A stretch of DNA of 64,000 bases, taken from the NCBI GenBank assembly GCA_044892505.1, contig CM097883.1, positions 64,108,001 through 64,172,000 of the forward strand, in the 5' to 3' direction. The stretch comes from Schmidtea nova (Eukaryota). Position numbers and translations under genes: made by a program. Shown piece after piece: positions 9,281 through 44,239 of the stretch. Numbering within the stretch: the stretch's first letter is position 1; each line of letters begins with the position of its first letter. The notes beneath the pieces are model-generated. The model was given only the letters and a program-made list of their open reading frames with translations. It made no database searches and had not been told where the DNA came from.

Positions 9281-9668
9281 TGCTGGTGTGTTGGTTGGAT
9301 TGACAACTGAGATCCTTAGGATTTTATATGTTAGGGTGATCTCGCCAACATAAAAACATTCCCCCGCTGACACCCATGATGTATCCCTAACTACTCATCA
9401 TGTTGGTGCTGTGTCAACGTTGTGAAATGACAAGGCAGGTGAGCAACCTTTCGGCTACTATTCCCTTGTTTATTCACGGGTCCACCACTACCGATAGAAG
9501 GTGTTTGTGGTTTTCTTTCGGTCCCACTTATGCTCTTTTCTTTTGTCCTAGGGTTGATTCGATGTTATCATATCTGCAGACTTAAAATGAACCAGGTTTT
9601 TGTTACTTTTAATTCTCATACATGCGTCAAACAAACAAGACAAATCAAAATCATTCATTTATATACAT

Positions 9669-10250: not shown

Positions 10251-10427
10251 TAACTAGGGTATATATGCATTGTTTGGTTTCTCAGTCATCATTTTATGGT
10301 TAAACAACTGCATTCCTATCCTTACTCATTCCTCATGCATCCCAAATCAAAACAAAAACCCTTTTAAATGGATACATATATTTGCAATTTACAACAGATA
10401 TTCGTTTATTGGGTGTTGTCCTCGTGA

Positions 10428-16551: not shown

Positions 16552-19500
16552 CTATACAACTATTACTGGTTTTCCTTCGTACAGTTCTTCGTCCTCGATC
16601 TGTACCCACATCTCTTCATGTTTTGATCGTCTTTTCAGTTCCTCTCGTACTTCTTTTGGTAGTTTTATGTTGTAGTTCGTGACCTTTACGTCTGGCCATT
16701 TTACTGCTATGGTCTTATTTCTCATGCCATATCTCCAACATACTATCATGATCGTTATCAGTGGGATACACGCTATGAATACTCCCATGCTGATTAAACC
16801 CATTATTGTTTTCCCAATGCTCCTTCTTGGAGTCTCACTTTGGTTTATCATCACGCCATATTGACCTTTCCATTCTGCTTCCCATTGTTCATATTGTTGT
16901 TGTCTCCGTCTGACTTCTTCGATCACTTTCTCTGGTTCCCATTTTTCTTGTTGATTTGGTATTGTTTCTTCCTTCTCGTTTTGTTCTCTCTTCTGACTCA
17001 ATTCTCGGAGTTCTAACTTTTTGATTCTCCTCTTTATCGGTGTGTAGTAGGTTTCGCACCTTTCTTGTGGATTTCCTTGTGTATCCACTTCTTCGATCGC
17101 ACACACTTCGTATTCTGCGTTTGTTTTCAACCTCCTCATTTCTACCTCGATTGTTTCCTTTTTGTCATTTGATGTCTTTTGACAATTTCGTGGAGACTTT
17201 CCCATACTGTTTGGCATTAATGTCCAACAGATTTCTAGGACCTTTTTATGGATCTTCCATATTATCAGAGTCGTTGATTCCGGTTCGTTTTTTGTTGACG
17301 TCCCTTCTGTTGTCTGTTGAGTTCCTTGACTGTTGGTTGTCGTGGTTCTTCTTGACTTTCTTTTCCTTTGTTGACTTCCTCCCATTTCGATCGTTCTTGT
17401 ACCGTTAATTTGCTCTGGCGTCTTGTACAGTCTGCACTCCAGGCTTCTTTGTATTACTTCTCTTATTCTTCGGATTACGCAAATTTCGTAAGCTTGTCCG
17501 ACTTCGAATCCATTTAGTTGAAACGGGATTCCTCGTTCTCTCGTTCTGCATTGCGGTAGTACGTGACTGGTCGATATTCCGATGTATTTTCTCCAACACA
17601 TCCCAATTGTTCTCCGCCCAATGTTTTTTATCTCCACTGTTACTACTTCATTCGCAATCGTTTCTTGATCTTGTTTCTTTCTTTTTGGGAACTCAATTAT
17701 CTCCTTTGCTCGGAACACTTTACACTCGCTTGTTCCTGGTCTGTTTCCGTTTGCTGCCTTTTCCATGAGACATAGTTCACATTTTTTATCTGTCTCTATT
17801 TCTGTTATTTCGATTTCTTCATTTGTCTCTGCCTCTCGACTTTCTCTTGTTTCGCTGATTCCAATTACTTCATTGTTTCGTCCCCAACATCTTCCATTCG
17901 TTGTTCGTTGGTCTTGGATATTTACTAACGTCATCACGCTGATATCTATGTCCTCCATGATTCTCTTAATGAGGATTAATATTAATGCTACACATATCAA
18001 TTCTGGTTGGAATGTTAATTTGCCTGCTGGATTTTTGGTTATTCTTTCTTTCTCTGTTCGGTTTCTGATTCCTTCTTCTGCTTCAGATTGATTCTTCCCT
18101 TTCTCTGATTCCACTTCTGTTCTTCTCGTTGTTTCTTTGCTTCTTTTCCCAATCCATTTCTGTATTTTCAGCGCTTCCGTTGCCTTATATAATTGACATG
18201 CAGTTACTTGAGGTGCTTTTGGTTCTCCTCTCTGCTTTATTGCGCATATTATGTATGACTTTTCTTTCTCCAATCCTTTGATTTGGATGACGTCTCGCTT
18301 CAAATCTGACAATATACACTTCAACGTATCATTTTTCTTCAGGTTTTCTTTCCAGCATATTCTTTCGTATACTTCATTTCCTCTGATTATCTCTAGCGTG
18401 ACGTATTGTTTCTTGGCTTCTCCTTGTCCGATGATTGTTATCAATATCGCAATACACAACATTTCTGGTCTCAAAAGTAGACTTCCTGTTCGTTTTCCAT
18501 AGTTCGCATGTTCGTCTTTTGTTCCACTGTTTTCTCGTTCTTCGGCTTCTCCTTTCTTGTCGTTTCTTGTTGGCTTTGGTTCTTCTTGTCTTTCTTTTTC
18601 ATTATCCTCCGTTCTTTTGTTGTCACTGTCTTCGTTGTTCTCTTCGTTGTTGCTTTTGTCGTCGAAATCTCTGTAACCACCCCCTGGTCCTTTCGAAATG
18701 TCGTCCTCGACATTAATTTCTTCAATCAATTTTTCATACGCTTGAACCGCGAGTGTGCTAGACTCGAATTCCCGTATTTCCATATCTTTGGATGGTTCTA
18801 TGTCTTTTAGTCTACTTTGTTTGATCGTTTCTTTGGCATTTGCCCATTCATTCACATATTTTCTGAACAAGTCTTTCCATCTTCCCGTTCGTTCGGGTTC
18901 CTTTGGATTGTTCGTGAACTTCAAATCTCTTCTCTTTAAGAATTCTTCTACTATCTCTGGCTTTTTGTGTCTTAACAACGCGCTTCTGATACACCAATTC
19001 TGATTCTGTTCTATATGGTCATTGATCTTGAATGCCGGTTCCTTGGTGATCGGGTTCACCCATGTTAGTAATGCTCTTGTTTTCTCTATGTCGTGTATCA
19101 TTACTGTCAGACTGAAATTCTTTACGTTATTCGCCAGGTATTCGATATCTTCTTGTTTCTTGATGGACTTTATGAACTTGATCATCTCAAAGTTGTTCCA
19201 CTGTATTGCGATATCTATAATGGAATTATTCTTTCCATTTTTCCCTTCGATTTTTGCTCCTGCTTCGTATAATTCACTTAGCACTTTCAGGCTCGTCTTC
19301 TTTCTTGCTGCGATTATCATGATTGTATCTCCATTATCATCAACCGTATTCATATCTGCTTCGCACTTGATCATCGCTTTCGTTATTTCTAGCGCTTCGT
19401 TTTCTTTCTTTCGACGTAATGCCCAGTGTATCGGTAATCTCCCATCCTTTGATAAAAGGGATGCTACTGGCATTTGATTCTTGATCGTTTCTATGTCACT

Positions 19501-19755
19501 CTCGTTATAATCTCCTTGTGCGTATCTGTGCACTTTCTCTGTAATCGCTCCTAGTATCTCCAACGAGTTTTTGTTCTCTTTGAATTCCGATATTCTTTCT
19601 TGCGCTTTTGCTACGATTGCGTCTAATCTCTCTTGATATTCCGCTTTTGCATTGAACAACACTGCTTTGCTTCTTATTCGCGTTTTCATCTTTTTCATCC
19701 GTTGGTCTTGATACACTGCTTGTCTGAAGAATTGTCCATATTTCAATGCTTCCAT
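16552..19755 (-). CDS. Ankyrin-repeat / 4x FN3-like / transmembrane protein (1067 aa)
   Basis: Ankyrin motifs (DGRLPIHWAL, NGDTIMIIAA), two internal signal-like segments, four CW...L...YEIC...C..Y.TP repeats and a C-terminal TM. Confidence 0.8.
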   Translation of the reverse strand: MEALKYGQFFRQAVYQDQRMKKMKTRIRSKAVLFNAKAEYQERLDAIVAKAQERISEFKENKNSLEILGAITEKVHRYAQGDYNESDIETIKNQMPVASLLSKDGRLPIHWALRRKKENEALEITKAMIKCEADMNTVDDNGDTIMIIAARKKTSLKVLSELYEAGAKIEGKNGKNNSIIDIAIQWNNFEMIKFIKSIKKQEDIEYLANNVKNFSLTVMIHDIEKTRALLTWVNPITKEPAFKINDHIEQNQNWCIRSALLRHKKPEIVEEFLKRRDLKFTNNPKEPERTGRWKDLFRKYVNEWANAKETIKQSRLKDIEPSKDMEIREFESSTLAVQAYEKLIEEINVEDDISKGPGGGYRDFDDKSNNEENNEDSDNKRTEDNEKERQEEPKPTRNDKKGEAEERENSGTKDEHANYGKRTGSLLLRPEMLCIAILITIIGQGEAKKQYVTLEIIRGNEVYERICWKENLKKNDTLKCILSDLKRDVIQIKGLEKEKSYIICAIKQRGEPKAPQVTACQLYKATEALKIQKWIGKRSKETTRRTEVESEKGKNQSEAEEGIRNRTEKERITKNPAGKLTFQPELICVALILILIKRIMEDIDISVMTLVNIQDQRTTNGRCWGRNNEVIGISETRESREAETNEEIEITEIETDKKCELCLMEKAANGNRPGTSECKVFRAKEIIEFPKRKKQDQETIANEVVTVEIKNIGRRTIGMCWRKYIGISTSHVLPQCRTRERGIPFQLNGFEVGQAYEICVIRRIREVIQRSLECRLYKTPEQINGTRTIEMGGSQQRKRKSRRTTTTNSQGTQQTTEGTSTKNEPESTTLIIWKIHKKVLEICWTLMPNSMGKSPRNCQKTSNDKKETIEVEMRRLKTNAEYEVCAIEEVDTQGNPQERCETYYTPIKRRIKKLELRELSQKREQNEKEETIPNQQEKWEPEKVIEEVRRRQQQYEQWEAEWKGQYGVMINQSETPRRSIGKTIMGLISMGVFIACIPLITIMIVCWRYGMRNKTIAVKWPDVKVTNYNIKLPKEVREELKRRSKHEEMWVQIEDEELYEGKPVIVV

Positions 19756-19764
19756 CAGCTCTTT

Positions 19765-22700
19765 TTATCGCTTGCTTATTTCTTTGTGCTGCTTTTGGAT
19801 GTCATAGAAATGTTCGAAGCTCATATCCGGATTCCATTGTTTATCACACCATTTCTTGATTAATCCGAATAGTTCTTTCTTCCTGTCTTCCAGCTTGTAT
19901 TCTCTTGGGTTCTCGCTAACCCGTAGCGTATCTCTCGCTATTAACACTGCAAGTGTTTTTGGATCGTATGTTACTTCTAATAGATGTTTCAGTAACGCAT
20001 TTTCTCCCCTTGTGAACACTTCATTACAATCTATGACCCACGAATCTCCTTCTGGTCGTTTCCACTTTAGCAATATTCTCCAGGTTTTACTGTTATTTAC
20101 TCCGATTGCTTGTTTCATGATCGATCCTCTAGTTAGTTCATCGATTTCCCACGTGGCATTTTCCGTAATATACTTCAGTATTCGGTGATTCGCTCTGTCA
20201 ATTGCATGATTCAAGAACGTTCGTCCTTCTTTATCTTTTGCCATCCAATTCGATCTGGTGTTTCCGAATAGCTTGATTATTTCATCGTTTCTTCCATGAA
20301 TTGTCATCATCATAAGTGGAGTGATTCCTTCCCAGTTCACTTTGTCAATTTCTCCTCCACCTTCGAGTATCATCTCCACGATCTCTTTCACTTTCTCGTT
20401 TCCACCGTGCTTGATTGCGTTGTGCAACGTGGTGTTGCCGTCTTTATCCTGTAGATTTAATGTCTGAGGGATCTCCTCTAGCAGCGTTCTTGTTATTGGA
20501 TGTGCTGTTCTATCCTTAGCATACTCCATTACATTCTTTCGAACTTCTGACAGTATATTGAAATCGAACCACCATTTCCATTCTGGTATGATTTCTCTGG
20601 TCCTCTTTGCCAGTTCTTTGATGTCTATTATCTCCCTTCGGTTGTCCTCTAGACTTGTTTGCGGCTTTTGTTGTACTCGCAACATATTAATTCTCGCCGT
20701 CTGTGATCTTGTCATCACCCGTTTCTCTGGTGATAGAGTTGCTGTCTTTGGTATTTTTCTGCATCGACATGCATTCACGTATATTGGTCTTACCAATGGA
20801 TTGTTCACCAATCGTACTCTCACATTATTTTGGTTAACTGTTGTTATTTCGTATGGCCCTTTGCCTGGTCGTTGGAGTTTCTTGACTGTACCGGGTATTA
20901 TCTCTGGTGTCTCAATTATCACCCAATCTCCAACTTTTAAATCATGTGCTTTCACATTCTTTTTCTGATCATGCAGATCCTTGTAACTCTCTTGATAGAA
21001 CTTGATGTTCAGTTCCGCCGTTTTCCAGATTTCTTGCATTCTTTCTTTGAACTTCGTCACGTAATCGTCAACCTCCATGTACTGTGATAATGGTGGTTGG
21101 TATTCTAAATCGATCGGTAAGTTGCAATCTCTTCCGTACATCAGTTGGAATGGACTTAGCTTTGTTGCCGCATGTATTGACATTCTGTATGCCATTAAAC
21201 ACAAGTTGATATACTCGTCCCAGTCAGTCTGATGTTTGCTGACGTAATTTGACAACATGCGTATCAATGTTCCATTGAATCTTTCTGTTTGACCGTTCGT
21301 TTGTGGATGGTATGGGGAAGTTCGTAATTTTGCAATTCGGAAGTAATTCGTAACTTCGTCTAATATTTCACTCATGAAATTTGTTCCTTGATCCGTTAGG
21401 ATTTTCTTTGGTGTTCCGTATCTGCAGCATATCTCTTCCACCAATATTCTCGCGACTGTTTTCGCTTTTTGATCTGGCATTGCGAACGCTTCTGGGAACT
21501 TTGTTAGATAGTCCGTGACTACTAAGATATATTGATTCCCCTTTAAACTTTCCGGCAATGGTCCAACCACGTCCATTGCTATCGTTGCCATCGGTTCTGC
21601 GGGTATTGGCATTGGTTTTAGTGGTGTTTTCCACTTCGTTCCGACGTTCTTTCTTGTCGCACAAGTTATGCAGTTCTTTATCCATTCTTTCACATCGTCT
21701 TCCATGGTTGGCCAAAAATACTTTTGTCTCAATCTCCCGATGGTCTTTTTCGCTGACATATGTCCGCCTAATTTTCCGTCATGATATTGAGTCATGATTT
21801 CCTTTCGCCTATTCGCAGGTAAGCACGTCAATCTCCGTTCTCCATCTTGTATCAATAACCATCCTTTTTCCATCACATATCTATGTTGATATTTCTGCAT
21901 ATGTTCGCGCAACGTTTGGTTCTTGCCGAATATTTCCCTTTCCCTTTCTTTCAGATACTTGCTGATCAATCCCAACTCCTCATCTTCGAGTTGATCTTTC
22001 CTTAATTCGCTGAAATCCAAATCTTCCGCTATTAATGCACATATTTTTAGAGCATTCAGGTTCACCAATTCTGGAAATGTAAACCTTGACATGCAATCCG
22101 CATTTGCATTTGCTTTTCCTGCTTTAAACTTTATGAACGGCGAGTATTCCTGTAACTGCATCGCCCAACGCATCAATCTACTTGATGATTCTTTATGTTG
22201 ACCTAACCATACTAGCGGTTGATGATCCGTCGTGATATATATTTCATGACCCCACAATAGGTATTTGAAATGCTTGATTGCCAATATTATCGCATAGGCT
22301 TCTCTTTCCGTGACTGAGTAATTCCTTTCATGCTTCCTGAACGTTCGACTGTAATATCCAATTACTTTTTCCTTGCCTTCTTCGTCAAATTGGCCTAGTA
22401 CTGCTCCTGCTGCGTATCCACTTGCATCTGTTGCTAACAAAAATGGCTTCTTGAAATCTGGATGGACCAGTATTGGTGCTGTAATCAGCTTATCTCGTAA
22501 TGTTTCAAATGCTGCTTGCTGTTCTGCTCCCCACACAAACGACACGTCTTGTCTTACTAATTCTTGCATTGGCTTTGATATTCCTGCATAGTCCTTGATA
22601 AACTTTCGATAATATCCACACAATCCCAAAAATTCTTGTATTTGAGTCACTGTTTTCGGTGGTGGACATTCTTTGACTTTTTCGATATTCCTTGGATCTG

Positions 22701-25700
22701 GTTCTTTTCCTTTTGCTGATACAATGTGACCTAAGAATGTCACTTTCTCTTTTGCCCAATCGCACTTTGACGGCTTTAATTTCAGTTTCCATTGCCTTAA
22801 TTTCACGAACACATTTCTGATGTCTTGCAAGTGGTCTTCAAATGTTGCGGAGTAGATCAATAGATCGTCAATATACACCATGCATTGCTTTATGCCATGT
22901 GTTACGAAATTCATGCATCTCTGGAATGATGCTGGCGCGTTTGTTAACCCAAACGGCATTTTCTTGAATTGGTACAGATCTCGTCCGATTGTAAATGCTG
23001 TCTTCTCTTTATCCTCGTCTTTCATTTTGATCTGCCAATATCCGCTCTTTAAATCCAGTGACGTGAAATAGGCTGCTCCTTGTAACGTCAACAACATTTC
23101 GTTTATGTCTGGCAGTGGGTACGTATCTCTTTTCGTAACTGCGTTCAATCGTCTGTAATCGATACAGAATCTCTGAGTTCCATCCTTCTTTTTCACCATC
23201 ACCACCGGGAATTGCCAGGGTGAGCAACTAGGTTCGATGACCTCTGCATCTAACATCTTTTGTACCTCTTCTTCTGCCACTGCTTTTTGAGCTTCTGCCA
23301 ATTTATATGGTCGTAATGCGATTGGCGTTTCGTCCGTCAACGGTATCGTGTGCAATGTTACATCACATGTTCCTAAATCTAGATCCGATGCTGCGAATAT
23401 ATCTTTATATTCCATCAACAGTTTCTGTAACTGTTCTTTTTGTCGTTCGTCTAACAACACACTGTCGATTTTCCATGGTAACTCGTCTTTGTTTTTCTCG
23501 TTCTTGTCTGGTATTTCGATCTCGGACATGGGTGTCAATTTACCCAATCTCTCATTCTCGTATATTATCTTGTCCTCTTCGTCGAAATTTACCAGATTAA
23601 TTGGTATCTCACCTTCTTGGTTTATCGTAACCAATTCTCTTGCCATTGGTAATTCCTTCTTCGCTTCGAACTTCTTACTTGGTTCGAATACCATATCTCC
23701 CTTTATTGTTGAATCGATCTTGACATAACACATCATTTCATGTCTCGCTGGCACTACTATTTGTTCTGCACTTGCCACTTTAACTTTCATTCTGCAGATT
23801 TTTCCTGTTCTGTCTTTTAGTTTCATTGCTCCTAGATCGATTACGATTTCCTTGAACAGGTCTGGCATCAGGTCAGTTCCAATAATACATGGTACACTCA
23901 GCGATGGTATTACAGCGATGTACGTGTTGATCTCTGCACCTCGATGCTTAATTTTTACAAACCATCTTCCGGCTACTTCTACCGTCTCTTGACTGCACGC
24001 GATTACATGTACATTCGTTTTCTCAATTTCTCCTTGGTTTTTCTCTGGTATATAATTGATGTCGATTGCCGAAATATTCGCGCCTGTATCGATCATAGCT
24101 TCAATTTCTCTTCCGTTTATTTCTACGGTTGTTGTTAAAATCGGTCCCATGTTTGTGGACATAACCGCTATCGTGTGCGTGTCTTCTAACGAGTTTACGC
24201 TTCCGCCTCGTTTTACTTTGCATCCTTCTGGAATTATCGGGTATATACTTGTCATCGGCATCATCTGCATCATATTCGGCTTCGCTTTGTATATTGGTTC
24301 GTTATACATTGATTGGGGTGGAGCACTGTATCTCCAATTCTCAACTGCACTCTTTTCGTTATACTGTGGAATCTGGTTTATATTCGCTTGTCCTCCTTGG
24401 TCGTCATCGTCATCATCATTACTTGAGTCATCCTGCGTTCGATATCCCCTCACTCTTTCCCATAATCCTTTCCTTTCTTTCTTTAGTTGTCGCCTTGCTT
24501 GCTCGTCTTGCATTATCTTTTTGAATTTCCTTCCGACATCTTCGTTTGTTCCTTTCATTTTTGCGAGTATCTTCAACAATCTTTTTATTCGATGTATGTC
24601 TTTTGAGTGTCCGTGTAACACCATCGTTTTCGCAAGGAATGGTAAAAACCCTACTACCATTTTCCAATTCACTTTCTTTTCTCTCTTGTAGATATCAAAA
24701 CACGCTAACATTTGCGTTATTATCACTCTGACGATTTGTATTATCAGTATAACCCCCAGTATTCCAGCCATCATTTGTCCGAATATTAGGAATCTTCCCC
24801 ACATTGCCTTCATCATATTTTCTGTGGCTTTCTTGAAATGTGCCGGTGACAACAGCAGTTCGTAATTCGGTCCTTCTCGATAATTCGTTCCTCCCGTTAT
24901 CGTTACGATATTTGACAGTAATGCTTCTCTTCTTGCCGGGAATAATATATTCTGCCTTGCTGCTTCTAAATCTTTTGGACTATAGATTCCGTTGTTTGAG
25001 ACATCTACGTCACTGAACTGTCTATCCTTTGACAACTGCATTAGCTCAAATTCTCTTGGTGCTAATACTTCGGTTCTTCCTGGGAACATTACCCATTTGC
25101 CATCTGGTTTCTGATAAAGCGGTCCGTACGCATTACTACAGTTGAATGGATTTGGTTCAAACCCTGGTGGATTGATGATTCTCGTCACCGGTTGAACGTA
25201 TCGTACTTTTCCTTTATAATCGATTTCTAATTCATTTGTACATTGTCCAGGTTTCAACTGCGTTGTTGCTGCTAGCGATGCGTGGGTCTTTTCGCAAATG
25301 TATACGTACATTGCTTCTCCTACCACTCTTCCGAAATGTCCTTCTCTCAGTGGTAATAATGGCATTGCGCTATCTGGATTCGTAATCGCTACGGCCAACT
25401 TTGTCTTCAATATTTCTCGATTCAGTATACAATCGTTATTTATCAGATCATAGTACACTTTTTGCAATGAGGCTTGACCTCTATGGAATAAGAAATCCAT
25501 TTTATTATTCACATACAAGTGTAGCTTGATATCCATTGTGTCGATCTTGGGTTTCGCATTCGGCACTTCTTGTTTCGACACGTATATTCCTGGATAGTTT
25601 GTTTCGTATACTGTTGTACTGCACTTAAGGGTTGCTTTCCCTTTTATGAATCTCATGCCCACATCCTGATTTGTGGTTATCAACACTGTTGGTGTGGTTC

Positions 25701-28700
25701 TCATCTCTATCCGTTTTTCTCTATGATCGGGTTTCAATTGTCTTTTATTCTCTAAAGCTTCCTTGAGATGTTTTGCTCTAGCCTTGTCATCATCGTCCTC
25801 TTCTTGGAACGTTTTTCCTTGAATTTCGTCGAACTTTGCTCCTTGTAGCAGTTGTAATTGACATTCGTTCCCCTTCGGTTTGTACACCAAAGTTGACATT
25901 CCCGTTTGACACATGCTTCTGTCAATTTTACACATGGATAACGTTTTCATTTCTCCTGTTGTCGGTTCGAAGAATGCTTCGTAGCTTTTCAGTTCGACTA
26001 TATACGTATCCATTACCACTAAGTTGGTTGCAGGTACTCCGAATATTGGGTAGGTTTCTCCTTGACAATATCCTTCTCCTCCCGTAATCCGTCCTGCTAC
26101 ATAATATGTCTGCTGCAACATCATTCCTGGCTTTCCTTTTATCTTGATTTTATCTCTCGTTGTCACTTCTCCATGTTTAAACAATGCTTCGCAGTCTTCT
26201 CCTTGCAACACGATTGGTTCTCTTTCGGTTCCTGGCATGACAATTGCCGAATAATGTCCTCTCCCACAATAGAATGCGAATCTCGTCTTCTGTACCTTGC
26301 ATTCATTCACCATTGTCTTTATGAGTTCTGCCTCTTGATACACGTGGTACCATTGTTCCTTTTTGATCTCTTTTAATTCTACTGGAGTTGCATCTTTGCA
26401 TTGCTCCGTACCTCTCAATGAGTACTTTTCTCCTAACTTCATTTGATCACAATCAAATACCTCAAATGTTGTTACACCTTCCGTGCTTAACAACCATACT
26501 AACATCATCATGATTATCGAGTTTAAATTCAACGTCGATCTTCCGTTTCCTTGCATCGTTTGTCTATTCTCCATTTCTCTCAATACTCCTTCAAGTTTCT
26601 TTCTCATCACGTTTGAACCCTCTTTTGTCTGGTTCTCTTTTATGAACTTTTCCCATCCTCCTTTCCTGAGGATATATGGTTCAATTTCTTTCTCGATAAT
26701 CATCGCCGTATTTTTAATATGTCTTCCCATCGGACTTGACTTCGGGCTTCCTCGGCTTAGCGTTAACAAATTGTATATCGTATACGAGATTGCTACTAGA
26801 TATTTGCTGTCCGTTTCTGCTCCGTTTAGTAGCCTTTTTACCAACGTCGTGGTTCCTTGCCAATCTAGATGATTCGATTTTGTTTTCGCCTTGATCAGTT
26901 CTGGCATAATCGGTGCTATCGCGTTGTGTAGCATCCTTGCCTTCGTACCGGGTTCGTTTATCCGCCACAGATTCTTTAATTCTGGGTCAATTATCGCTAA
27001 TACATCCATTATCGTTTTGGTGAGCCATTCTTCTCCTTGGCAGACTTGATTCTCCTCTTTTCCTCTGATTTCTGCGATTTTATCTAATTTCTTCAAGCAA
27101 ATCTCCCATTGCTCTTGTCTCCTTTCTTCTCTTGTCTTTGGAATTGCTGTTGTTGGGTCTATCTTTGGTCTTCCTCTTGGTCGTTTTTCCATTCCGGTTC
27201 CTGTTTCTACCAATCTCGATGTTCTTCCGGTTTCTTCCGTAACATCTATTCCTTCGTTTGCTCGTTGTTCTAACCATCTTTCCATTTCTTGAGTAAACTG
27301 TGGTTGTTCTTGCTCGTCCTCCGAATCGTTTACCATTTCTATGACTACCTCCTGTTCCACTCCTTGATCGTCGATTTCTGCTGGTGACGTTATTGGCATC
27401 TCTATTATTCTGTCGAAAATATTCGCCGTTGGTTTTTGAGTCAACTTCGTTAGTTCTTCTATCGCCTCATCACTATCTGTTAGTATCTCATCCACGTCAT
27501 ACGCTTCTGGTGGTGTTCTCTCTCTCGTTTTTATTGGTGTTGTCCTTGCTTGTCCCGAACTTGTTCCTGGGGTCATTGTTGACTTCATCGGACTTGGTGT
27601 ACTCATGCTTCCTTTCGCTTTCTTTTCCTCTTTAAACTTCAGTGGTTGACCCACTATTTGTGCCACTGTTAGCGTATTCATTAGATCCAATTGCACTGGT
27701 GTCAGCCAGATTTCCAAATTGTTATCCAACGATCGTCCTTGATGTTGCAGGTGGAATGGTAGTTCGTACATCAGTTTCTCTTTAACACTTTTCACTTTTT
27801 CCGTTAGCATCACCCAAAACTCTTCTTTTCTCTGATTCGGATACATTATCCTCAAATGTATCTTCTGTGGCGTTTCCTCCGCGAATTCTCTGTTTCTCCA
27901 CTTTTTTATTACATCGTCTAGTTGCTCTGGACACCACTCGTTAACTCTCTTGTATTCTACTATCGCTTTAGCTACTTTTCTCAAGTTCGTCATGTCTTCT
28001 CCATTTGTGATTATGAATTGTGCTAAGCCTTTTATTGTTTGTCTTTTTCCCCGAGTATTTCCTCTCAACAGCTCGATCAATTCACTTGTTTTCTGTTTCT
28101 CCAATTCTGCCCATATTACTGCAGTTTCTGGTCCGTCTAAGTCCGTTGGTAATATTCTCCTTGTTACCATACATATCCGTTTCGTATTCGTTTCGTATCT
28201 GTCTTCTCCTTCCGGATCTTCTTCATACACGCCTCTTTTCACTTTCCAACATTTCTCTTTGTTATCCCATTGCTTCTCTACTGGCGTCAATCGTCGTCTG
28301 TTAAGATCCAATTCTCCCAATATTGTCTCCCATTCTGGCTTCATCTGCCAGTTCCGATAGATTTCTACTATCTGTCTCAACTTGCGCATAACGTCCTCTT
28401 GTCGTTTCTTTCTCTTTCCTTCATCTTTTGTAGTTATCCTCGGCACATCATCCATTCTGATGACGTGTATTGTCTGATAATTATCCCATATGCCGATTTT
28501 GTACGCTCGTCTTTCGTCTCGTTCGTTCAGTAGATGTTCTTTGTATTTTATAGCGATGTCATCCTCGAATTCGTCTTCTCGTTCTTGTTGTAATATCGTC
28601 TCATTGATGACATCTACTATTTCTCCCACTTTACTATCTGGTATTACCTCAATTTGTCTTGTCTCTTCGTTTGGTAATCTCACGGTAATATTCAGATCTG

Positions 28701-31443
28701 ATACCTCTCCTCGTTTGAATATTTCTTTTCCCATCTTTGCGATTAGCTTATCCGTTTTGAAATTTGAATGTCTCGTTTGACTTGTATCTCGTATGTTCTC
28801 GATACACTGTTTCAAATTCTCATACTCGCTTTTCGTCAATTCCTTTCGATGTTTCTTGATTTGTTGGATGATCTGTTCTATCATCGTATTCAAATTCTCC
28901 GCCAGGATTCTTTCCTTTGCCTCTAGCAACTGAGGTTTTATTCTCATCTCATAACACATATTCGCTTCTTTGACGATCCTTTGTAAGTTCTCTTCCTTTT
29001 TGGTGTTGCATATAGATAACGTCGTTATTTCTCCTGGCCAGATGCCTGTGTCTATCATATGCGTTCCTTTTCTCACCAATCCGTTTTCCGAATATATGAA
29101 TTTGACTTTGTACGAGCTTCCCAATCTGTCCTCAACCCATCTGTAAATTCCATCCGTCATTGGGTTCCTTATCCAGATTCTCGGTGAACACTCGTTTGTC
29201 CATATTTGTATTACGTATTCGTTGAGTGGTTCTTTCAATAACTTCTCTATGAACTCTTGTATTACTCTCACTTCTCTTTCTTGTAACCACTCTTTATACT
29301 TCATCTGCCATACTGCTCGTATAAACTTTCGATATCGTTTCGTGTCGATAAACTCCTCGTTATGGATTACTTCCAACGCGTTATCCATCAGCTTCTGAAT
29401 TTCGTCTTCCTTTACTGACAATGTTTCTATTGTCTCGACTACTTCCATCTTTTTATCCTCGTTTTCCGGTTCCTTTAGCATGTCTCCTGCCAGACTGCTA
29501 ACTTCGCTGTCGTCTTCTTCATCTGACAACTCTTGTCTTGGGTGTCTCAGCATCCCAATATGCGCGGTTGGTCTCGCTTTGTTTTTGCTAACTTCTTGTA
29601 TTAGTTCATTCTCGTTTCCTGTTACTTCAGCTTTTCCCATTCTTTTCTCCAATTCATCTATTTCTTCCAACCGTCTTCGTCTTATTTTTCCCTTGAATAT
29701 TCGACTGATCCGAGTTTGATGTTTTACTGGTGGTGGGATTTTCTCCGGTTCCACCTCTCTGATGATCATCACGTTTATTTTCGTCTCTGTTACTCCCATA
29801 TCTTCCCATATATCGGTCATCTTTAACTTCACTTCTGGCAAATCCTCTGTTTGTAGGAATGCTTCTCTGGGCAGTTTCGTTATTCCCGGAATCATCTCAT
29901 TTACTTTATTGAACAGTCTTCCCACTTCTTCTTTTACATCATATTTGAATCGCCACACGTGATCATTCGGCATGATCACCAACATTCCTCTTTGTTTGAT
30001 TCTCACTTCCTCTTCTTGATTCGTTTCTTTTTCTCCTTCTTTTTCTGTTTCTGTTTCTTTTTCTACCTCTTCATCCTTTTGATTCTGCTCCGCGACTTCT
30101 ACTTCCTGATTCACTTCTTCTTGTTTCTGCTCTTCGTTTCTTTTCTCTTTAACTTCTAACTCGTCTGACTCATCCTGCTGCTTCTCTTCCATCATTGCTC
30201 GCATCATGTTGATCCTTGGATTTCCCTTCTTTAACTGTTGTAACCGTTGTTGTCTGACTTGTTCCTCTTCTCGTCGTATTCTAGCCCATTCTTGATTATG
30301 TTTCTGTTGGCTTTCTCTATTTTCTCTTTCGGCCTCAGCTTCTATTAACTGGATCATGTTTATCTTTGGTTGAGCAGCTTGTTGGCTTCCCTTTGCCATG
30401 CTTTCGATTATCTCGTGTAATCTAGACACCTCCTGTCTCAACTTAGCTTCTTTCATACTGGCTTCATTTGCACTGTTATTTGGGTTGTTCCGTTGTTGGC
30501 CTTGATTCCCATAGCTTGGTCGGTTTCCGTAATTCTGTCTATTTCCACTGTTTGACCAACTTCTCTGTTGATTACAGTCTCTTGACATGTGTCCGGTTTT
30601 TCCACATGTGTAACACGTTTTCCCATAACATCGATTCTCTGAGTGACCTTTTTGTCCACACAGTTTACAGGCTACATTCTGAAAACACTCTTGTTGCCAA
30701 TGTCCGTTTTTTCCACATGTCTGACATTGCCTATTCTGCCTGTCATTGTAACTATTTCCTCCATTCGTGTTCACCGTGATATATCCGTTATTCTTTCTCG
30801 CTGGCGGTTCTTTGAACAATCTCTGCGAATGGGGAATACTTTGATTCATGTTTCTTTTTCCTTGTTCTTCATCTTCTGTCGTTTTTCCCATTACCGCCGT
30901 AATTCTCATGTCGTTCATTTCCATATGCAATTCGAATAGGTTGGCTGCTTCCAACGCTTCATCCACTGTTTTACATCCTTTGCATCCCACTTGTGCTCTG
31001 ATGTCAGGTCTCCTGAGACCTCGTACGAATAACGCTGTCATCAATTCTTCGTCTACTGGGCTTCCTCTGTTGAACGCCAGTTTCGCCAACTTTCTTAATT
31101 CACTTGCGTACACCGCATTTGACTCATTTCTCCTTTGTTTTCTTGCTGAGAACTCATCGAATGCTTCATTCAGCACTTTGTTTATCCCAAACGTCTGTTG
31201 GAAGAACTCCTTGATCGCTTCCCACGTTCTGGGTGGATTACTTCCCGATCTCTTCTCAATATACAGATCCAATGCGCTATCTTTCAAGTATAGCGGGATT
31301 CGATTCGCTAACGTTTCTGCACTCCATCCGCATATATCCACGAATATGCCAAATTCCTTCAGGAACGTGTCCAATCTACTGGCGTCTCCATTAAATGGTT
31401 CGCCCTTGAATTTTTCTCTTAGATCCTCTCTGTGATCACTCAT
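19765..31443 (-). CDS. gag-pol: Gag-accessory-Env-Pol-ankyrin polyprotein (3892 aa)
   Basis: Single uninterrupted ORF containing all the domains listed below. Confidence 0.95.
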   Translation of the reverse strand: MSDHREDLREKFKGEPFNGDASRLDTFLKEFGIFVDICGWSAETLANRIPLYLKDSALDLYIEKRSGSNPPRTWEAIKEFFQQTFGINKVLNEAFDEFSARKQRRNESNAVYASELRKLAKLAFNRGSPVDEELMTALFVRGLRRPDIRAQVGCKGCKTVDEALEAANLFELHMEMNDMRITAVMGKTTEDEEQGKRNMNQSIPHSQRLFKEPPARKNNGYITVNTNGGNSYNDRQNRQCQTCGKNGHWQQECFQNVACKLCGQKGHSENRCYGKTCYTCGKTGHMSRDCNQQRSWSNSGNRQNYGNRPSYGNQGQQRNNPNNSANEASMKEAKLRQEVSRLHEIIESMAKGSQQAAQPKINMIQLIEAEAERENRESQQKHNQEWARIRREEEQVRQQRLQQLKKGNPRINMMRAMMEEKQQDESDELEVKEKRNEEQKQEEVNQEVEVAEQNQKDEEVEKETETEKEGEKETNQEEEVRIKQRGMLVIMPNDHVWRFKYDVKEEVGRLFNKVNEMIPGITKLPREAFLQTEDLPEVKLKMTDIWEDMGVTETKINVMIIREVEPEKIPPPVKHQTRISRIFKGKIRRRRLEEIDELEKRMGKAEVTGNENELIQEVSKNKARPTAHIGMLRHPRQELSDEEDDSEVSSLAGDMLKEPENEDKKMEVVETIETLSVKEDEIQKLMDNALEVIHNEEFIDTKRYRKFIRAVWQMKYKEWLQEREVRVIQEFIEKLLKEPLNEYVIQIWTNECSPRIWIRNPMTDGIYRWVEDRLGSSYKVKFIYSENGLVRKGTHMIDTGIWPGEITTLSICNTKKEENLQRIVKEANMCYEMRIKPQLLEAKERILAENLNTMIEQIIQQIKKHRKELTKSEYENLKQCIENIRDTSQTRHSNFKTDKLIAKMGKEIFKRGEVSDLNITVRLPNEETRQIEVIPDSKVGEIVDVINETILQQEREDEFEDDIAIKYKEHLLNERDERRAYKIGIWDNYQTIHVIRMDDVPRITTKDEGKRKKRQEDVMRKLRQIVEIYRNWQMKPEWETILGELDLNRRRLTPVEKQWDNKEKCWKVKRGVYEEDPEGEDRYETNTKRICMVTRRILPTDLDGPETAVIWAELEKQKTSELIELLRGNTRGKRQTIKGLAQFIITNGEDMTNLRKVAKAIVEYKRVNEWCPEQLDDVIKKWRNREFAEETPQKIHLRIMYPNQRKEEFWVMLTEKVKSVKEKLMYELPFHLQHQGRSLDNNLEIWLTPVQLDLMNTLTVAQIVGQPLKFKEEKKAKGSMSTPSPMKSTMTPGTSSGQARTTPIKTRERTPPEAYDVDEILTDSDEAIEELTKLTQKPTANIFDRIIEMPITSPAEIDDQGVEQEVVIEMVNDSEDEQEQPQFTQEMERWLEQRANEGIDVTEETGRTSRLVETGTGMEKRPRGRPKIDPTTAIPKTREERRQEQWEICLKKLDKIAEIRGKEENQVCQGEEWLTKTIMDVLAIIDPELKNLWRINEPGTKARMLHNAIAPIMPELIKAKTKSNHLDWQGTTTLVKRLLNGAETDSKYLVAISYTIYNLLTLSRGSPKSSPMGRHIKNTAMIIEKEIEPYILRKGGWEKFIKENQTKEGSNVMRKKLEGVLREMENRQTMQGNGRSTLNLNSIIMMMLVWLLSTEGVTTFEVFDCDQMKLGEKYSLRGTEQCKDATPVELKEIKKEQWYHVYQEAELIKTMVNECKVQKTRFAFYCGRGHYSAIVMPGTEREPIVLQGEDCEALFKHGEVTTRDKIKIKGKPGMMLQQTYYVAGRITGGEGYCQGETYPIFGVPATNLVVMDTYIVELKSYEAFFEPTTGEMKTLSMCKIDRSMCQTGMSTLVYKPKGNECQLQLLQGAKFDEIQGKTFQEEDDDDKARAKHLKEALENKRQLKPDHREKRIEMRTTPTVLITTNQDVGMRFIKGKATLKCSTTVYETNYPGIYVSKQEVPNAKPKIDTMDIKLHLYVNNKMDFLFHRGQASLQKVYYDLINNDCILNREILKTKLAVAITNPDSAMPLLPLREGHFGRVVGEAMYVYICEKTHASLAATTQLKPGQCTNELEIDYKGKVRYVQPVTRIINPPGFEPNPFNCSNAYGPLYQKPDGKWVMFPGRTEVLAPREFELMQLSKDRQFSDVDVSNNGIYSPKDLEAARQNILFPARREALLSNIVTITGGTNYREGPNYELLLSPAHFKKATENMMKAMWGRFLIFGQMMAGILGVILIIQIVRVIITQMLACFDIYKREKKVNWKMVVGFLPFLAKTMVLHGHSKDIHRIKRLLKILAKMKGTNEDVGRKFKKIMQDEQARRQLKKERKGLWERVRGYRTQDDSSNDDDDDDQGGQANINQIPQYNEKSAVENWRYSAPPQSMYNEPIYKAKPNMMQMMPMTSIYPIIPEGCKVKRGGSVNSLEDTHTIAVMSTNMGPILTTTVEINGREIEAMIDTGANISAIDINYIPEKNQGEIEKTNVHVIACSQETVEVAGRWFVKIKHRGAEINTYIAVIPSLSVPCIIGTDLMPDLFKEIVIDLGAMKLKDRTGKICRMKVKVASAEQIVVPARHEMMCYVKIDSTIKGDMVFEPSKKFEAKKELPMARELVTINQEGEIPINLVNFDEEDKIIYENERLGKLTPMSEIEIPDKNEKNKDELPWKIDSVLLDERQKEQLQKLLMEYKDIFAASDLDLGTCDVTLHTIPLTDETPIALRPYKLAEAQKAVAEEEVQKMLDAEVIEPSCSPWQFPVVMVKKKDGTQRFCIDYRRLNAVTKRDTYPLPDINEMLLTLQGAAYFTSLDLKSGYWQIKMKDEDKEKTAFTIGRDLYQFKKMPFGLTNAPASFQRCMNFVTHGIKQCMVYIDDLLIYSATFEDHLQDIRNVFVKLRQWKLKLKPSKCDWAKEKVTFLGHIVSAKGKEPDPRNIEKVKECPPPKTVTQIQEFLGLCGYYRKFIKDYAGISKPMQELVRQDVSFVWGAEQQAAFETLRDKLITAPILVHPDFKKPFLLATDASGYAAGAVLGQFDEEGKEKVIGYYSRTFRKHERNYSVTEREAYAIILAIKHFKYLLWGHEIYITTDHQPLVWLGQHKESSSRLMRWAMQLQEYSPFIKFKAGKANANADCMSRFTFPELVNLNALKICALIAEDLDFSELRKDQLEDEELGLISKYLKEREREIFGKNQTLREHMQKYQHRYVMEKGWLLIQDGERRLTCLPANRRKEIMTQYHDGKLGGHMSAKKTIGRLRQKYFWPTMEDDVKEWIKNCITCATRKNVGTKWKTPLKPMPIPAEPMATIAMDVVGPLPESLKGNQYILVVTDYLTKFPEAFAMPDQKAKTVARILVEEICCRYGTPKKILTDQGTNFMSEILDEVTNYFRIAKLRTSPYHPQTNGQTERFNGTLIRMLSNYVSKHQTDWDEYINLCLMAYRMSIHAATKLSPFQLMYGRDCNLPIDLEYQPPLSQYMEVDDYVTKFKERMQEIWKTAELNIKFYQESYKDLHDQKKNVKAHDLKVGDWVIIETPEIIPGTVKKLQRPGKGPYEITTVNQNNVRVRLVNNPLVRPIYVNACRCRKIPKTATLSPEKRVMTRSQTARINMLRVQQKPQTSLEDNRREIIDIKELAKRTREIIPEWKWWFDFNILSEVRKNVMEYAKDRTAHPITRTLLEEIPQTLNLQDKDGNTTLHNAIKHGGNEKVKEIVEMILEGGGEIDKVNWEGITPLMMMTIHGRNDEIIKLFGNTRSNWMAKDKEGRTFLNHAIDRANHRILKYITENATWEIDELTRGSIMKQAIGVNNSKTWRILLKWKRPEGDSWVIDCNEVFTRGENALLKHLLEVTYDPKTLAVLIARDTLRVSENPREYKLEDRKKELFGLIKKWCDKQWNPDMSFEHFYDIQKQHKEISKR
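20150..20470 (-). other. Ankyrin repeats fused after integrase
   Basis: DKDGNTTLHNAIKHG, NWEGITPLMMM, DKEGRTFLNHAI. Confidence 0.85.
20840..21800 (-). other. Integrase domain
   Basis: HHCC (HDGKLGGH..CITC), catalytic D,D(35)E (AMDVVGP, LTDQG, QTERFN) and GPY motif at ~20851. Confidence 0.97.
22085..22450 (-). other. RNase H domain
   Basis: TDASG, YSVTERE, TDHQPL, NANADCMSR. Confidence 0.97.
22600..23400 (-). other. Reverse transcriptase domain
   Basis: RFCIDYRRLN, LDLKSGYWQI, MPFGLTNAP and YIDD (22864-22875). Confidence 0.98.
23860..24150 (-). other. Aspartic protease domain
   Basis: AMIDTGANIS (DTG at 24082-24090) and IIGTD. Confidence 0.95.
24600..26533 (-). other. env: Chuvirus/herpes gB-like envelope glycoprotein domain
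   Basis: Signal-like IIMMMLVWLL; Cys pattern FDC..C..EC..YCG..C..G.C.G; YVNNK, VGEAMYVYIC, GIYSPKDL..ILFP motifs; furin REKR (25711-25722); TM at ~24700-24800. Confidence 0.85.
26640..27110 (-). other. Bcl-2-like domain
   Basis: BH2-like IEPYILRKGGWEKF, diverged BH1-like segment, helical spacing, followed by a hydrophobic segment. Confidence 0.7.
27163..27186 (-). other. AT-hook motif
   Basis: KRPRGRPK. Confidence 0.7.
27665..29995 (-). other. Up to four ubiquitin-like modules
   Basis: For example ITVRLPNEETRQIEVIPDSKVGEI..GIWDNYQTIHV and IHLRIMYPNQRKEEF..VKSVKEKL..QGRSLDNN, fitting the ubiquitin beta-grasp pattern. Confidence 0.5.
30574..30726 (-). other. Three CCHC zinc knuckles (nucleocapsid)
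   Basis: CQTCGKNGHWQQEC, CKLCGQKGHSENRC, CYTCGKTGHMSRDC. Confidence 0.97.
30900..31443 (-). other. gag: Gag capsid domain
   Basis: EPFNGD..FLKEF..GW..IPLYLKDSALDLY..TWEAIKEFF..RKQRRNES..YASEL..LAKLAF. Confidence 0.9.
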
Positions 31444-32320
31444 CCCGATTCCACTATCTTGGAATACTGTACTAGTTTTCTTTACTTCTAGTTCACCACT
31501 TGTTTCTGAATTCGACTCTTCTTCTTCGCTACTCTCTGTTTCGTTATCTCTTGATTCGCTTCTTGCTCTGTTTTCCCTGACTAGTTCACTGTCTATCGTC
31601 TCTACTTCGTTTTGTACTTCTAGATCTTCTGGGGTTTCTTCTTGATTCTCTTTATTACTCGAATTATCGCTGATCTCTACTTGTTTGTTCTTTTGTTGCT
31701 TAGGCTTGTTACCTGTTCTTGTCCTTTTTGCTGCTTTTCTTTCTGCTTCCGTTAAGATTGGTATTATACCTGATCTTGTTTCTCGTCCCTCAATTTTGTC
31801 TATTCCTCAACTTCCTATATTCTCAATTGATTTTCTACTCCGCTTTTGCTTTGCTTCTTCTTTGCTTTGTTTCCTTTGATTGCTCTGACTGCTAGATTGC
31901 TTTGGATTGCTTGATTGATTTGTTTCCTTAAAACAAATAATCACTTACACGATACGTCCCCGTTATCGTGTTTCTCGTCCCTCTCACGGGTGTAGTCATA
32001 ATTCATGAAGATCCCCATTTTTCCCATTTCCCTTGATTTTAAGTCTATTTAAATTATCTATGCAGTCGTATCAATTATCTATTCTTTATCAAATACACCA
32101 ATTACTTTTCCCCAGTTTCCCAATTACTTTGTCGCTCAGCGCTCTTATTATTCCCTTTACTTTTCTCAGGCTTCTCTGGCTCTGAGTTCAAATCTCCCCT
32201 TATCTGTCAACTACTCTATTTCCCAACTATTCGCTTTATCTCCTATTCGCACTACGTTTACAACTTCATTTCAATTCTCATCTCTACTCACCTTTAATTC
32301 AACTGACGTCTCTCGTTGGC

Positions 32321-35385: not shown

Positions 35386-35779
35386 AATTTATGCTGGTGT
35401 GTTGGTTGGATTGACAACTGAGATCCTTAGGATTTTATATGTTAGGGTGATCTCGCCAACATAAAAACATTCCCCCGCTGACACCCATGATGTATCCCTA
35501 ACTACTCATCATGTTGGTGCTGTGTCAACGTTGTGAAATGACAAGGCAGGTGAGCAACCTTTCGGCTACTATTCCCTTGTTTATTCACGGGTCCACCACT
35601 ACCGATAGAAGGTGTTTGTGGTTTTCTTTCGGTCCCACTTATGCTCTTTTCTTTTGTCCTAGGGTTGATTCGATGTTATCATATCTGCAGACTTAAAATG
35701 AACCAGGTTTTTGTTACTTTTAATTCTCATACATGCGTCAAACAAACAAGACAAATCAAAATCATTCATTTATATACAT

Positions 35780-36361
35780 TTATTTATAGTTCAACAGTAC
35801 AGAGGGTCTAATCACATTTAGTAATTCTTGCTCAGAGAGACCACTAAGCAAGTCTACCTCTATCCCTACGCGATCGGCATACGCACGTCTTTCCCTGCGC
35901 CTTTTCGCTCCCAAGCGATTCCTTCTCTTCGTTCGTTTTGAACCTGCTGGCATTGTAGCTGTCACTGCATTAACTGTAGCTTCGGTCGATGTGTTCTCCG
36001 TTTGGGTGCTCGTAGTCACCGCTATCGTGCTTATCCATCGATTAAAGGTGCTTGCTCTGATCACGGGGCGTAATTGCTCAGCGATGAAATCCTGGGTCGA
36101 CACCTTCAAATAATTGGTCAACTCCAATTTCAGGGCTGCGATTTCTCGTGCTTGTTCATCGATCGTTCGTTCCGCTCTGTATCGGGCTTGTAAGATGGCT
36201 TTAACCCTCTCAGGATTAAACCATGTTGTCTTAATTCGCTGGTGCTCCTCATTCAGTTGTCTCAAGCGACTCTCGAGGACACGAGATCGTGCTCTATGTT
36301 CGCGTGCCTCTTGCTTGTATTTTCGATTGGGATTTTCGTCCATATCTGAGTAATGTATCAT
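35780..36361 (-). CDS. LTR-encoded ORF B, second copy
   Basis: Translation identical to 9669-10250. Confidence 0.6.
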   Translation of the reverse strand: MIHYSDMDENPNRKYKQEAREHRARSRVLESRLRQLNEEHQRIKTTWFNPERVKAILQARYRAERTIDEQAREIAALKLELTNYLKVSTQDFIAEQLRPVIRASTFNRWISTIAVTTSTQTENTSTEATVNAVTATMPAGSKRTKRRNRLGAKRRRERRAYADRVGIEVDLLSGLSEQELLNVIRPSVLLNYK

Positions 36362-36538
36362 TAACTAGGGTATATATGCATTGTTTGGTTTCTCAGTCAT
36401 CATTTTATGGTTAAACAACTGCATTCCTATCCTTACTCATTCCTCATGCATCCCAAATCAAAACAAAAACCCTTTTAAATGGATACATATATTTGCAATT
36501 TACAACAGATATTCGTTTATTGGGTGTTGTCCTCGTGA

Positions 36539-37174
36539 TCAATTGTATGGTCGTAACTCTTGGTTGGCCGGGTTCTCGTCTCGGCGAATCCCTGTTTCAT
36601 GGTAGAGTTCCGGGGCTGGATTCCAACTCAGTTGGTTTTGATAAATGAACACCTCCCAGAGGCGAAGGTCTTTGGGCTCGGGGTGTTGATCCACGGAAAC
36701 ACTGCCTGGGGCGTTCGGGTAAACGAAGACTTCCCCAGTGTCACCACACCGAGGCCTGTCTAGCAGCAAATACCCGAGTTGGCCGAATGCCTGCCCGGTC
36801 ATCATTCCGGTGCTTAGTACCCAACGGGGTTGTTGTGTTTCATCTACAAATTGATAGAACCATCTTTCGTATCCATCTTTGGTGGGGTTCGGGGAGGGCG
36901 TCCAATTTACATCACCTTCCCACCTCAGCTGTAGTTGGAATGCACAGGCGGGAAAACTTGCCGCGGTGCTCATATGGGTCCTTGTCCATCGACGCAGGTG
37001 TCTGCGAGCGGAGTTGAAAATTTGGCGTGGGGCCTCCTTCTCTCCTTGAATTTCGGTAGGTAACTTTGGCGTGATGACGGAGCGGATGCGCCGTTTCCTC
37101 CGTAGAATGTACTCCTCTAATTTGACGGTTAGGGGTCCTACCGGCTCCTTTATGAGATATTCTGTTTTCGTCAT
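36539..37174 (-). CDS. LTR-encoded ORF A, second copy
   Basis: Translation identical to 10428-11063. Confidence 0.6.
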   Translation of the reverse strand: MTKTEYLIKEPVGPLTVKLEEYILRRKRRIRSVITPKLPTEIQGEKEAPRQIFNSARRHLRRWTRTHMSTAASFPACAFQLQLRWEGDVNWTPSPNPTKDGYERWFYQFVDETQQPRWVLSTGMMTGQAFGQLGYLLLDRPRCGDTGEVFVYPNAPGSVSVDQHPEPKDLRLWEVFIYQNQLSWNPAPELYHETGIRRDENPANQELRPYN

Positions 37175-38633
37175 GTCGCTCTGAAATGGAATTTTAGGTT
37201 AACTGACAGACTCTATCATCGACCATCGATATTTATGTCGATCAACCTACTTGGTTTATCGTTCTATTAGCCGTAGGCCTTAGTGGTTCGCATATAATTT
37301 ACTAGACCATTGATCGCGGTGTTCATGTAGGTGGTGATTTTACTTGGGTGAGTTGATTCACTCCGCAATTGCAGTTGGTTTTAGCCACGCTCATTTAGGC
37401 TTGTTATTTACAATCATACTTTACGTTACATTAAATTTCTCATCAATCATTTTCATGCATTTAACATGGTTCATTTACAGATCATCATCAGCAACTATCA
37501 AGGTTCACGTCACGGGGAAAATTTAGTAATCCCTTTGTCAACTACTTTGTGGAGAAATGCACTAATTTTATCTACTGTCGGGTCTGACTTTTCATGCCCT
37601 TCGTGGGTTATAGGTATATGTCTGACAGCTCATTCGGTTCGCTACTGCCCTTAGTGCTAATGTCTTTTTGACCGCGATGTTACGCTTTACCTATCTCGAT
37701 TCTCATCGACTTCTGATGTACCAGCACTCCTTGAAGGTACACTCCTTCGTCCAGATACCTCATGCATGTATCTCCCCTTGCGAAATAAGCTTTACCTTGA
37801 TTTGATTTATGACCATTAGCTGTCACTCGATACCCTATCATCATGATATAAAGTGTTGATACTAGGCCGTCTCATCCTTGATTTGGTTCATGATCATTAT
37901 GGCTTATTCGATACCCTATGTGCATTTACCCCTTCCGCTTTCCAAATATTTAGTACACTTATAGTCCCGCCGCATCAGCACCTCACAACCGAAAGATTGT
38001 GTTGCGCTGAGAGGCCCCGAGAATCCGTCAGGCTGTTAGGCCTCCGGAAAACCTTATTGATTTTATTATGGTTAACAATTAAAATTATGAGGGTTAGACA
38101 CATCAATAACATAACACCAAATTACCTTTTATTTCCTTTCCAAATTCGTTTCACAATGATCTCAGTAGTCACAAACAGTTCACACTTGGTAAAGATAACA
38201 TTGTCAAATACTGATTTTACTTCAGTATTTATACTGAACCGGTGTTGTTGGTTAGCCAATCAGCATCGAGTATGTGTGTATGTTTGCTTCATTTTTTATG
38301 TTGTCGGCTTTTTGCTGCCTAACTTAACTCGCCGATTTGTTTGGTTAATCATGCGGTAAGTTTATTTTTTGTACGATTTAATTTTTATTTGATTTTGCTT
38401 TAGGTCTTCGGTGACATCCGCCCACGCGCTGTCATATTCCAATTTTATCTGCTTCGCATGAGTGAGTTTTGAAGATTTTTGTTGTTTTGATTAATATGTT
38501 ATTTCTTTTAGATGTTGCCGCCTATTTTGTTACGCTTTGGTGTTGGTAATTTATTTTGTTGTTATTCTGTGTTTAATTTATTTTATTGATTGTACATTAT
38601 TTTCAGATGCTGCTCGATTTGGCTGGCCCAACA

Positions 38634-44195: not shown

Positions 44196-44236
<41 letters not shown>

Positions 44237-44239
44237 AAT

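Follow-up and report, generated by a model that had tools for sequence, protein, structure and literature searches.

Does a planarian retroelement encode, within its polyprotein, a Bcl-2-fold domain whose trailing hydrophobic helix also serves as the signal peptide of the envelope glycoprotein that follows, and, if so, could the product act at a membrane on the death of the host cell? The question is raised by a 64,000-nucleotide stretch of Schmidtea nova DNA (hereafter the window), in which a first-pass annotation had proposed a Bcl-2-like domain spanning 26476..27110, the tail of which doubles as the Env signal peptide, so that signal-peptidase cleavage would leave a tail-anchored product on the ER and block apoptosis during particle production. 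The region lies within a whole Gypsy LTR element (9,281-38,633, minus strand; 29,353 bp, ~29.4 kb), which has TG...CA ends and a 4-bp target duplication, GAAG, and is organized as follows.

35392..38633, minus strand: 5' LTR, 3,242 bp, 100% identical to 9,281-12,522
19768..31806, minus strand: 4,013-aa open frame with Gag, unknown region, Bcl-2-like domain, Env, PR, RT, RNase H, IN and ankyrin repeats
30571..30726, minus strand: Gag CCHC zinc knuckles (PF00098, E 1.8e-8, and motif position)
20158..24132, minus strand: PR, RT, RNase H, integrase and ankyrin repeats, from domain matches
16555..19764, minus strand: 1,070-aa ankyrin-repeat frame, in the same frame as the 4,013-aa ORF, beyond one stop codon
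14578..16005, minus strand: complete accessory TRAF-like ORF inside the element (RING, TRAF zinc fingers, MATH)
9281..12522, minus strand: 3' LTR, 3,242 bp, identical to the 5' LTR

A lone stop at 19,765-19,767 splits the 4,013-aa and 1,070-aa frames despite the identical LTRs; many other copies found by searching the same genome are open over about 5,085 aa. In that search 150 of 1,194 candidates were scored, of which 139 are 78-100% identical and 11, representing a sister family, 65-67% identical. Past its ankyrin repeats the 19,764-16,555 frame continues with repeated Cys-containing units and, at the C terminus, a hydrophobic segment; Pfam matches nothing in this region, which may be the ectodomain of a membrane protein. 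Neither a 396-aa frame (14,515-13,328) nor a 219-aa frame within each LTR (37,198-36,542 and 11,087-10,431) has a convincing Pfam match, and a tandem array of 19-bp repeats occupies 33,072-33,394 in the element's 5' untranslated region. Outside the element, long inverted-repeat structures at 722-3,526 and 43,665-55,428 are probably the ends of DNA transposons.

Dugesiid planarians harbour Burro (GYPSM1) elements, which are Gypsy-like LTR elements of giant size (Jurka 2007 and Grohme 2018, via Arkhipova and Yushenova 2019, PMC6431247). The length of the window element, its 3,242-bp LTRs and its gag-env-pol order (4,013 plus 1,070 aa) agree with a giant Gypsy of this kind, as do its BCL2-like, ankyrin and MATH/TRAF domains with the published description in the part of that article consulted; from this layout, compared with Burro by published description, we infer that it is Burro-type. 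The same text credits the BCL2-like motif in Burro-2, -3 and -4 to Grohme 2018, places env between BCL2 and PR, describes further death and signalling domains carried by these elements, and considers that such domains may meddle with host apoptosis; a second article (PMC13465017), in the portion covered, refers to Lee 2026 for an IAP carried by Burro1, which is anti-apoptotic and is reported to protect stem cells. Both the Bcl-2-like domain and its position before env are, according to the covered text of PMC6431247, already published for planarian Burro, although within the literature searched the domain has so far been known as a mere motif match. What is new here is the evidence on fold, the loss of BH1, and an inter-family exchange of env with its break at the predicted cleavage site. 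No statement of a signal peptide acting as an anchor was found in the literature searched; by word search 'signal peptide' and 'anchor' are absent from the available text of PMC6431247.

The region upstream of Env contains the following features.

27163..27186, minus strand: AT-hook-like RGRP motif, read from the sequence, directly upstream of the Bcl-2-like domain
26620..27048, minus strand: predicted Bcl-2-fold domain (residues 22-164 of P0001), from AF2, VIA, Foldseek and hhalign
26803..26814, minus strand: BH1 position, with TDSK replacing NWGR in the alignment to cellular Bcl-2
26644..26676, minus strand: BH2-like YILRKGGWEKF, residues 1711-1721 of the 4,013-aa frame

Structure prediction supports a Bcl-2 fold for this domain, i.e. 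a bundle around central helices 5 and 6. An AlphaFold model from 29 element-only alignment rows (pLDDT 73.6), compared by VIA with 48,161 representative chains, is closest to Hydra Bcl-2-4 (6wgz; Z 12.2, rmsd 3.0 over 137 residues); the top 33 rows are all Bcl-2-fold and the first unrelated row has Z 5.2. Helical bundles may, by the tool's own warning, reach Z near 13 by chance, a caveat that we consider outweighed because the matches are consistent in family, the whole domain is covered and the sequence evidence agrees. Every row listed by Foldseek from the PDB is a Bcl-2-family chain (best E 7e-3, with no row at E 0.001), the best viral Foldseek match to the domain model is BALF1 (E 7.6e-4), and hhalign of the window family alone with cellular Bcl-2 gave 95% and E 3.9e-8. 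Searches with the single sequence gave no match: the window domain has no match to Pfam Bcl-2 (PF00452), and hence lies below its curated cut-off, phmmer against the PDB returned nothing at E 10, and single-sequence AlphaFold gave pLDDT 46 and no fold match. A profile of the window family only reached Bcl-xL at E about 1-2, and one made without the Bcl-2-selected families at E 0.006. The first-pass annotation had named a predicted fold other than Bcl-2 as the outcome that would speak against its domain; the fold predicted is Bcl-2-like, and lies inside the span originally claimed, covering the narrower interval of about 27,048-26,620.

The motif content of the domain is likewise as had been described, with a recognizable BH2 and a diverged BH1. 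YILRKGGWEKF (26,676-26,644, minus strand) pairs with cellular WIQENGGWEAF in the hhalign alignment, and a BH2-type pattern, found a single time in the actual protein, turned up in 22 of 20,000 shuffles, an optimistic figure because the pattern was written post hoc; the GGW of BH2 is near-invariant among element rows. At BH1 (TDSK, 26,814-26,803) the Gly is missing from 27 of 28 element rows, being present in one, and Arg or Lys is kept at the Arg position in 24 of the 28. No segment beats shuffles as a BH3 motif when scored with a profile from seven cellular BH3 segments (235 of 500 shuffles were as good). An extra N-terminal helix was considered as a BH3 mimic and rejected, since 32-422 of 500 shuffles were equally good over nine rows. 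A predicted complex between the domain and a Bok-like BH3 segment of the host scored 0.02, which counts neither for nor against binding. According to the text consulted of PMC9027176, the BH1 Gly and Arg are important for BH3 binding, and ORFV125, which is without NWGR, binds the Puma BH3 more weakly; loss of the Gly needed for canonical BH3 binding argues, at the level of sequence, against a canonical role for the element domain.

The loss of BH1 has not been accompanied by relaxed constraint on the core, which is under purifying selection. Compared with a sister family, the Bcl-2-like core has dN of 0.166 with dS saturated or 3.5, whereas the linker that follows is the least constrained part (dN/dS 0.28-0.56); the low dN of the core at saturated dS shows that the Bcl-2-like domain is maintained while the linker is loose.

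Profiles of Bcl-2 and env, searched against this genome, brought up more element families that share the order Bcl-2-like region, linker, hydrophobic helix and env, of which seven families, one row each, were kept. Five of six sister families match Pfam Bcl-2 in the same place (E 5.8e-8 to 2.2e-3; nearest sister 0.14), some of them having been found via the Pfam Bcl-2 profile itself, but not two that were env-selected; one sister family, L040, is over the curated cut-off (33.6 bits). The RGRP AT-hook-like motif is common to L040 (PF02178, E 0.075), P0003 and P0004. A profile of 17 element rows gave 29 matches among 1.84 billion proteins: 16 are cellular Bcl-2-family members, 12 are read as element-type (seven with the full layout, some fragments being classed by resemblance alone), and one, a saposin protein (P0007), was left out as a false positive. 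In a tree of 40 cores, all 17 element rows lie on one side of a branch with support 96/92, with no element row falling within the 23 cellular or host rows, given a midpoint root and long branches (that to the window family is 1.65 changes per column); this arrangement fits one old capture and indicates that the domain's position is old. Host Bcl-2-family exons were observed in the same genome (L031-L039, L042, L050, L056, L059), several of them being diverged short paralogues. The element layout recurs in 14 diverged lineages, with the Bcl-2-like domain directly before the helix in all 14 that span the region, and the domain is in frame in the seven families of this genome as well as in elements outside it.

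The boundary between the domain and Env comprises the following.

26535..26625, minus strand: linker, a predicted helix, poorly conserved (AF2 model; dN/dS)
26488..26532, minus strand: hydrophobic helix, predicted internal Env signal peptide (hydropathy, profile starts, conservation)
26467..26475, minus strand: VTT, predicted (-3,-1) site for signal peptidase, which would put the start of mature Env at 26,466
24697..26466, minus strand: Env, class III-type fusion glycoprotein (PF24664, E 3e-74; Atlas; hydropathy)

Env directly follows the Bcl-2-like region and the helix, has a C-terminal transmembrane segment by hydropathy at about 24,792-24,697, and is grouped by Atlas with viral fusion glycoproteins of 588-643 aa, a recognition flagged as weak. 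The hydrophobic segment begins 37 (LNLNS) to 42 (IIMMMLVWLL) residues past YILRKGGWEKF, close to the ~35 aa first estimated. Its predicted role as a signal peptide, judged from the (-3,-1) rule, hydropathy and profile alignment, is supported by anatomy and conservation: the rule is obeyed at the same place in 13 of 14 lineages (background 0.095), two residues ahead of a conserved (A/V/I)(Y/F)DC motif that opens Env, and the predicted cleavage in the window is VTT/FEV. The PF24664 match in five of the sister families, and in three proteins from outside, starts at profile positions 3-6 on the helix itself.

That the same helix is also the tail of a Bcl-2 protein is less well supported. Its 19-residue hydropathy is 1.52, as against 1.59-2.32 in the tails of 10 cellular proteins (of 11 considered, one being dropped because its motif was unmatched), and it starts 45 residues past the BH2 Trp in the window compared with 17-35 in cellular relatives, linker length across the elements being 30-59 versus 17-35. 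These values hint that the helix may be marginal as a lasting membrane anchor, and it would be C-terminal solely after the predicted cleavage. The weak helix, the long linker and, in the sister families, the alignment with the N terminus of the glycoprotein profile point to a helix that is probably Env's own signal peptide by origin rather than the tail of Bcl-2. Word-seeded protein searches gave no hits, and a scan of viral contigs brought up no free-standing Env relatives, so the argument on origin rests on the Pfam profile. A signal-peptidase cut alone would, moreover, not free the domain, which would stay attached to some 1,600 aa of Gag region in the absence of a further cut; the product would run from Gag to Bcl-2 and measure up to about 1,660-1,780 aa, and no protease site upstream of the Bcl-2-like domain was located. 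Of the tail-anchored Bcl-2 originally envisaged, then, the helix after the domain and the predicted cleavage stand, whereas the size of the Gag-joined product, the weakness of the helix and its 45-residue spacing tell against it.

Comparison with the sister family (L061, L066) also bears on the boundary. Over mature env (26,450-24,550) the two families are 90-98% identical in DNA (dS 0.35), as against about 70%, with saturated dS, over the gag, Bcl-2 and protease regions; env has probably been exchanged between the two families. The 5' break lies at 26,457-26,445, i.e. 3-7 codons past the predicted cleavage site, so that the helix stayed on the Bcl-2 side. Decayed derivatives (L116, L115, L118 and five more places) have kept the Bcl-2-like domain and helix and are missing env and pol, being fused just beyond the predicted cut to a stretch situated ~6 kb further downstream in full-length relatives; seven places have both matches side by side in the hit lists, and the eighth, L118, was recognized by translation. 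The exchange and the derivatives suggest that domain and helix travel together, although neither event shows anchoring.

The explanation that we consider best, at a little short of an even chance, is that the Bcl-2-fold domain is a host-survival factor likely left on the cytosolic face of the ER by the Env signal helix once this is cut. The helix would target the ribosome to the ER, with cleavage by signal peptidase at VTT/FEV, steps that we regard as very probable. Env would enter the lumen, its C-terminal helix returning PR-RT-IN to the cytosol, and the N-terminal Gag-to-Bcl-2 product would stay at the ER through the cleaved helix; that this tether would last is nearly, but not quite, an even call, and trimming to a small Bcl-2 would need the element's protease. 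The domain might then dampen host cell death via a non-canonical groove, as do some viral Bcl-2 proteins without NWGR, a step somewhat less probable than the tether. Dual use of the helix would arise because env is placed in mid-polyprotein and, by analogy, would be the normal outcome for a glycoprotein so placed. A broader proposal, which we put forward tentatively and think on the whole unlikely to be right, is that ancient env-carrying retroelements make an ER-tethered, BH1-less Bcl-2 without the tail-anchor pathway, reusing the cleaved signal peptide and keeping producer cells alive, with Bcl-2 and helix forming a module of their own, as the env exchange at the cleavage site and the deletion derivatives might indicate.

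Other roles have to be weighed against survival of the producer cell. Bcl-2 folds are not confined to apoptosis, the poxvirus proteins A46, A52 and B14 acting in innate-immune or NF-kB-type signalling, and the element domain could similarly be an inhibitor of such signalling, or a scaffold working with the element's own TRAF-like and ankyrin proteins. Loss of BH1 across element lineages while the core is under purifying selection speaks for such a role, and a TRAF-like ORF and two ankyrin blocks are present in the same element; yet the model, at Z 10-12, is nearer to the cellular and herpesviral Bcl-2 proteins than to A52, B14 and A46, for which Z is 5.2-6.5, the near-invariant GGW and the basic residue retained at the BH1 Arg position (24 of 28 rows) are less readily accounted for, and several sister families have far shorter polyproteins. 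We judge a signalling role improbable, at perhaps one chance in four. Marginally less probable is a structural part in the particle, in which the domain would be a matrix-like, membrane-proximal module, the cleaved helix would tie the Gag precursor to the Env membrane, and host death would be unaffected. That the domain is always the C-terminal end of the Gag-side product, in all 14 lineages, that an AT-hook-like motif precedes it in several of them, and that this position is old on the evidence of the tree are consistent with such a module, but any cytosolic domain could serve as a spacer and it is specifically BH2 and the Bcl-2 core that have been kept. A retroviral-type protease usually acts at maturation, a timing that fits the structural role and the survival factor equally and separates neither.

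The eroded BH1, the long branch and the blindness of Pfam to the domain might also be expected of a decaying passenger captured from the host, with the helix being merely Env's signal peptide. This is largely refuted by the selection signal (dN of 0.17-0.20 at saturated dS against a sister family), and the domain's in-frame retention and confidently predicted full fold stand against it too, such that we consider it very improbable. If, on the preferred explanation, the tethered and BH1-less Bcl-2 does work, a retroelement would possess a functional Bcl-2, which would join the IAP reported for Burro1 as a second anti-death tool, and a signal peptide would have been reused as the membrane anchor of a host-control domain. 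The domain (27,048-26,620), the helix and the predicted cut provide a concrete construct boundary.

With respect to known systems, the closest are the Burro elements themselves, which, as described in the text covered, share with the window element a length of ~30 kb, a giant polyprotein (~5,000 aa in Burro), Gag CCHC knuckles, a BCL2-like motif, ankyrin repeats and an in-frame env between BCL2 and PR; the Burro env is described as similar to mononegavirus glycoproteins, and that of the window is equivalently placed. A Burro-type element of Dugesia tigrina carries TRAF/MATH in an accessory ORF, as does the window element. The TRAF-like ORF of the latter, downstream of the polyprotein, differs from the Burro description, as does the finding of no BIR domain in the six frames scanned of the window. 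GAG-ENV-POL errantiviruses with an HSV/gB-type Env, reported in Platyhelminthes (PMC13524379), similarly have env between gag and pol, a class III-type Env and an ectodomain that lies between a signal peptide (or membrane segment) and a transmembrane domain; the main text of that article, unlike the window element, has no 'Bcl', 'Burro' or 'apoptosis'.

Viral Bcl-2 proteins (BALF1, BHRF1, A179L, KsBcl-2, ORFV125) resemble the window domain in being captured, diverged folds in selfish genomes, and ORFV125, in the text consulted, also in missing NWGR, but they are free-standing genes of DNA viruses, whereas the window domain is part of a retroelement polyprotein; 'retrovirus' and 'retrotransposon' are absent by word search from the available text of a review (PMC11209288). 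The cellular proteins (Hydra Bcl-2-4, Trichoplax trBcl-2L2, Bfl-1, Bcl-xL) have the predicted fold in common with the domain (Z 10.8-12.2, rmsd 3.0-3.5), together with a BH2 motif and a hydrophobic helix after the core; the window domain differs in its low identity to them (9-15%), in missing NWGR, in having no recognizable BH3, in its longer linker and in being embedded in a polyprotein, and its anchor, unlike theirs, would arise by signal-peptidase cleavage. For that last property the nearest precedents are hepatitis C core/E1 and flavivirus capsid/prM, in which an upstream cytosolic protein ends in a helix that is both the signal peptide of the downstream glycoprotein and a temporary anchor, the upstream protein then being freed by signal peptide peptidase or a viral protease. 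As there, one helix would serve two proteins in the window element; in those viruses the upstream protein is a capsid, whereas here it would end in a Bcl-2-like domain.
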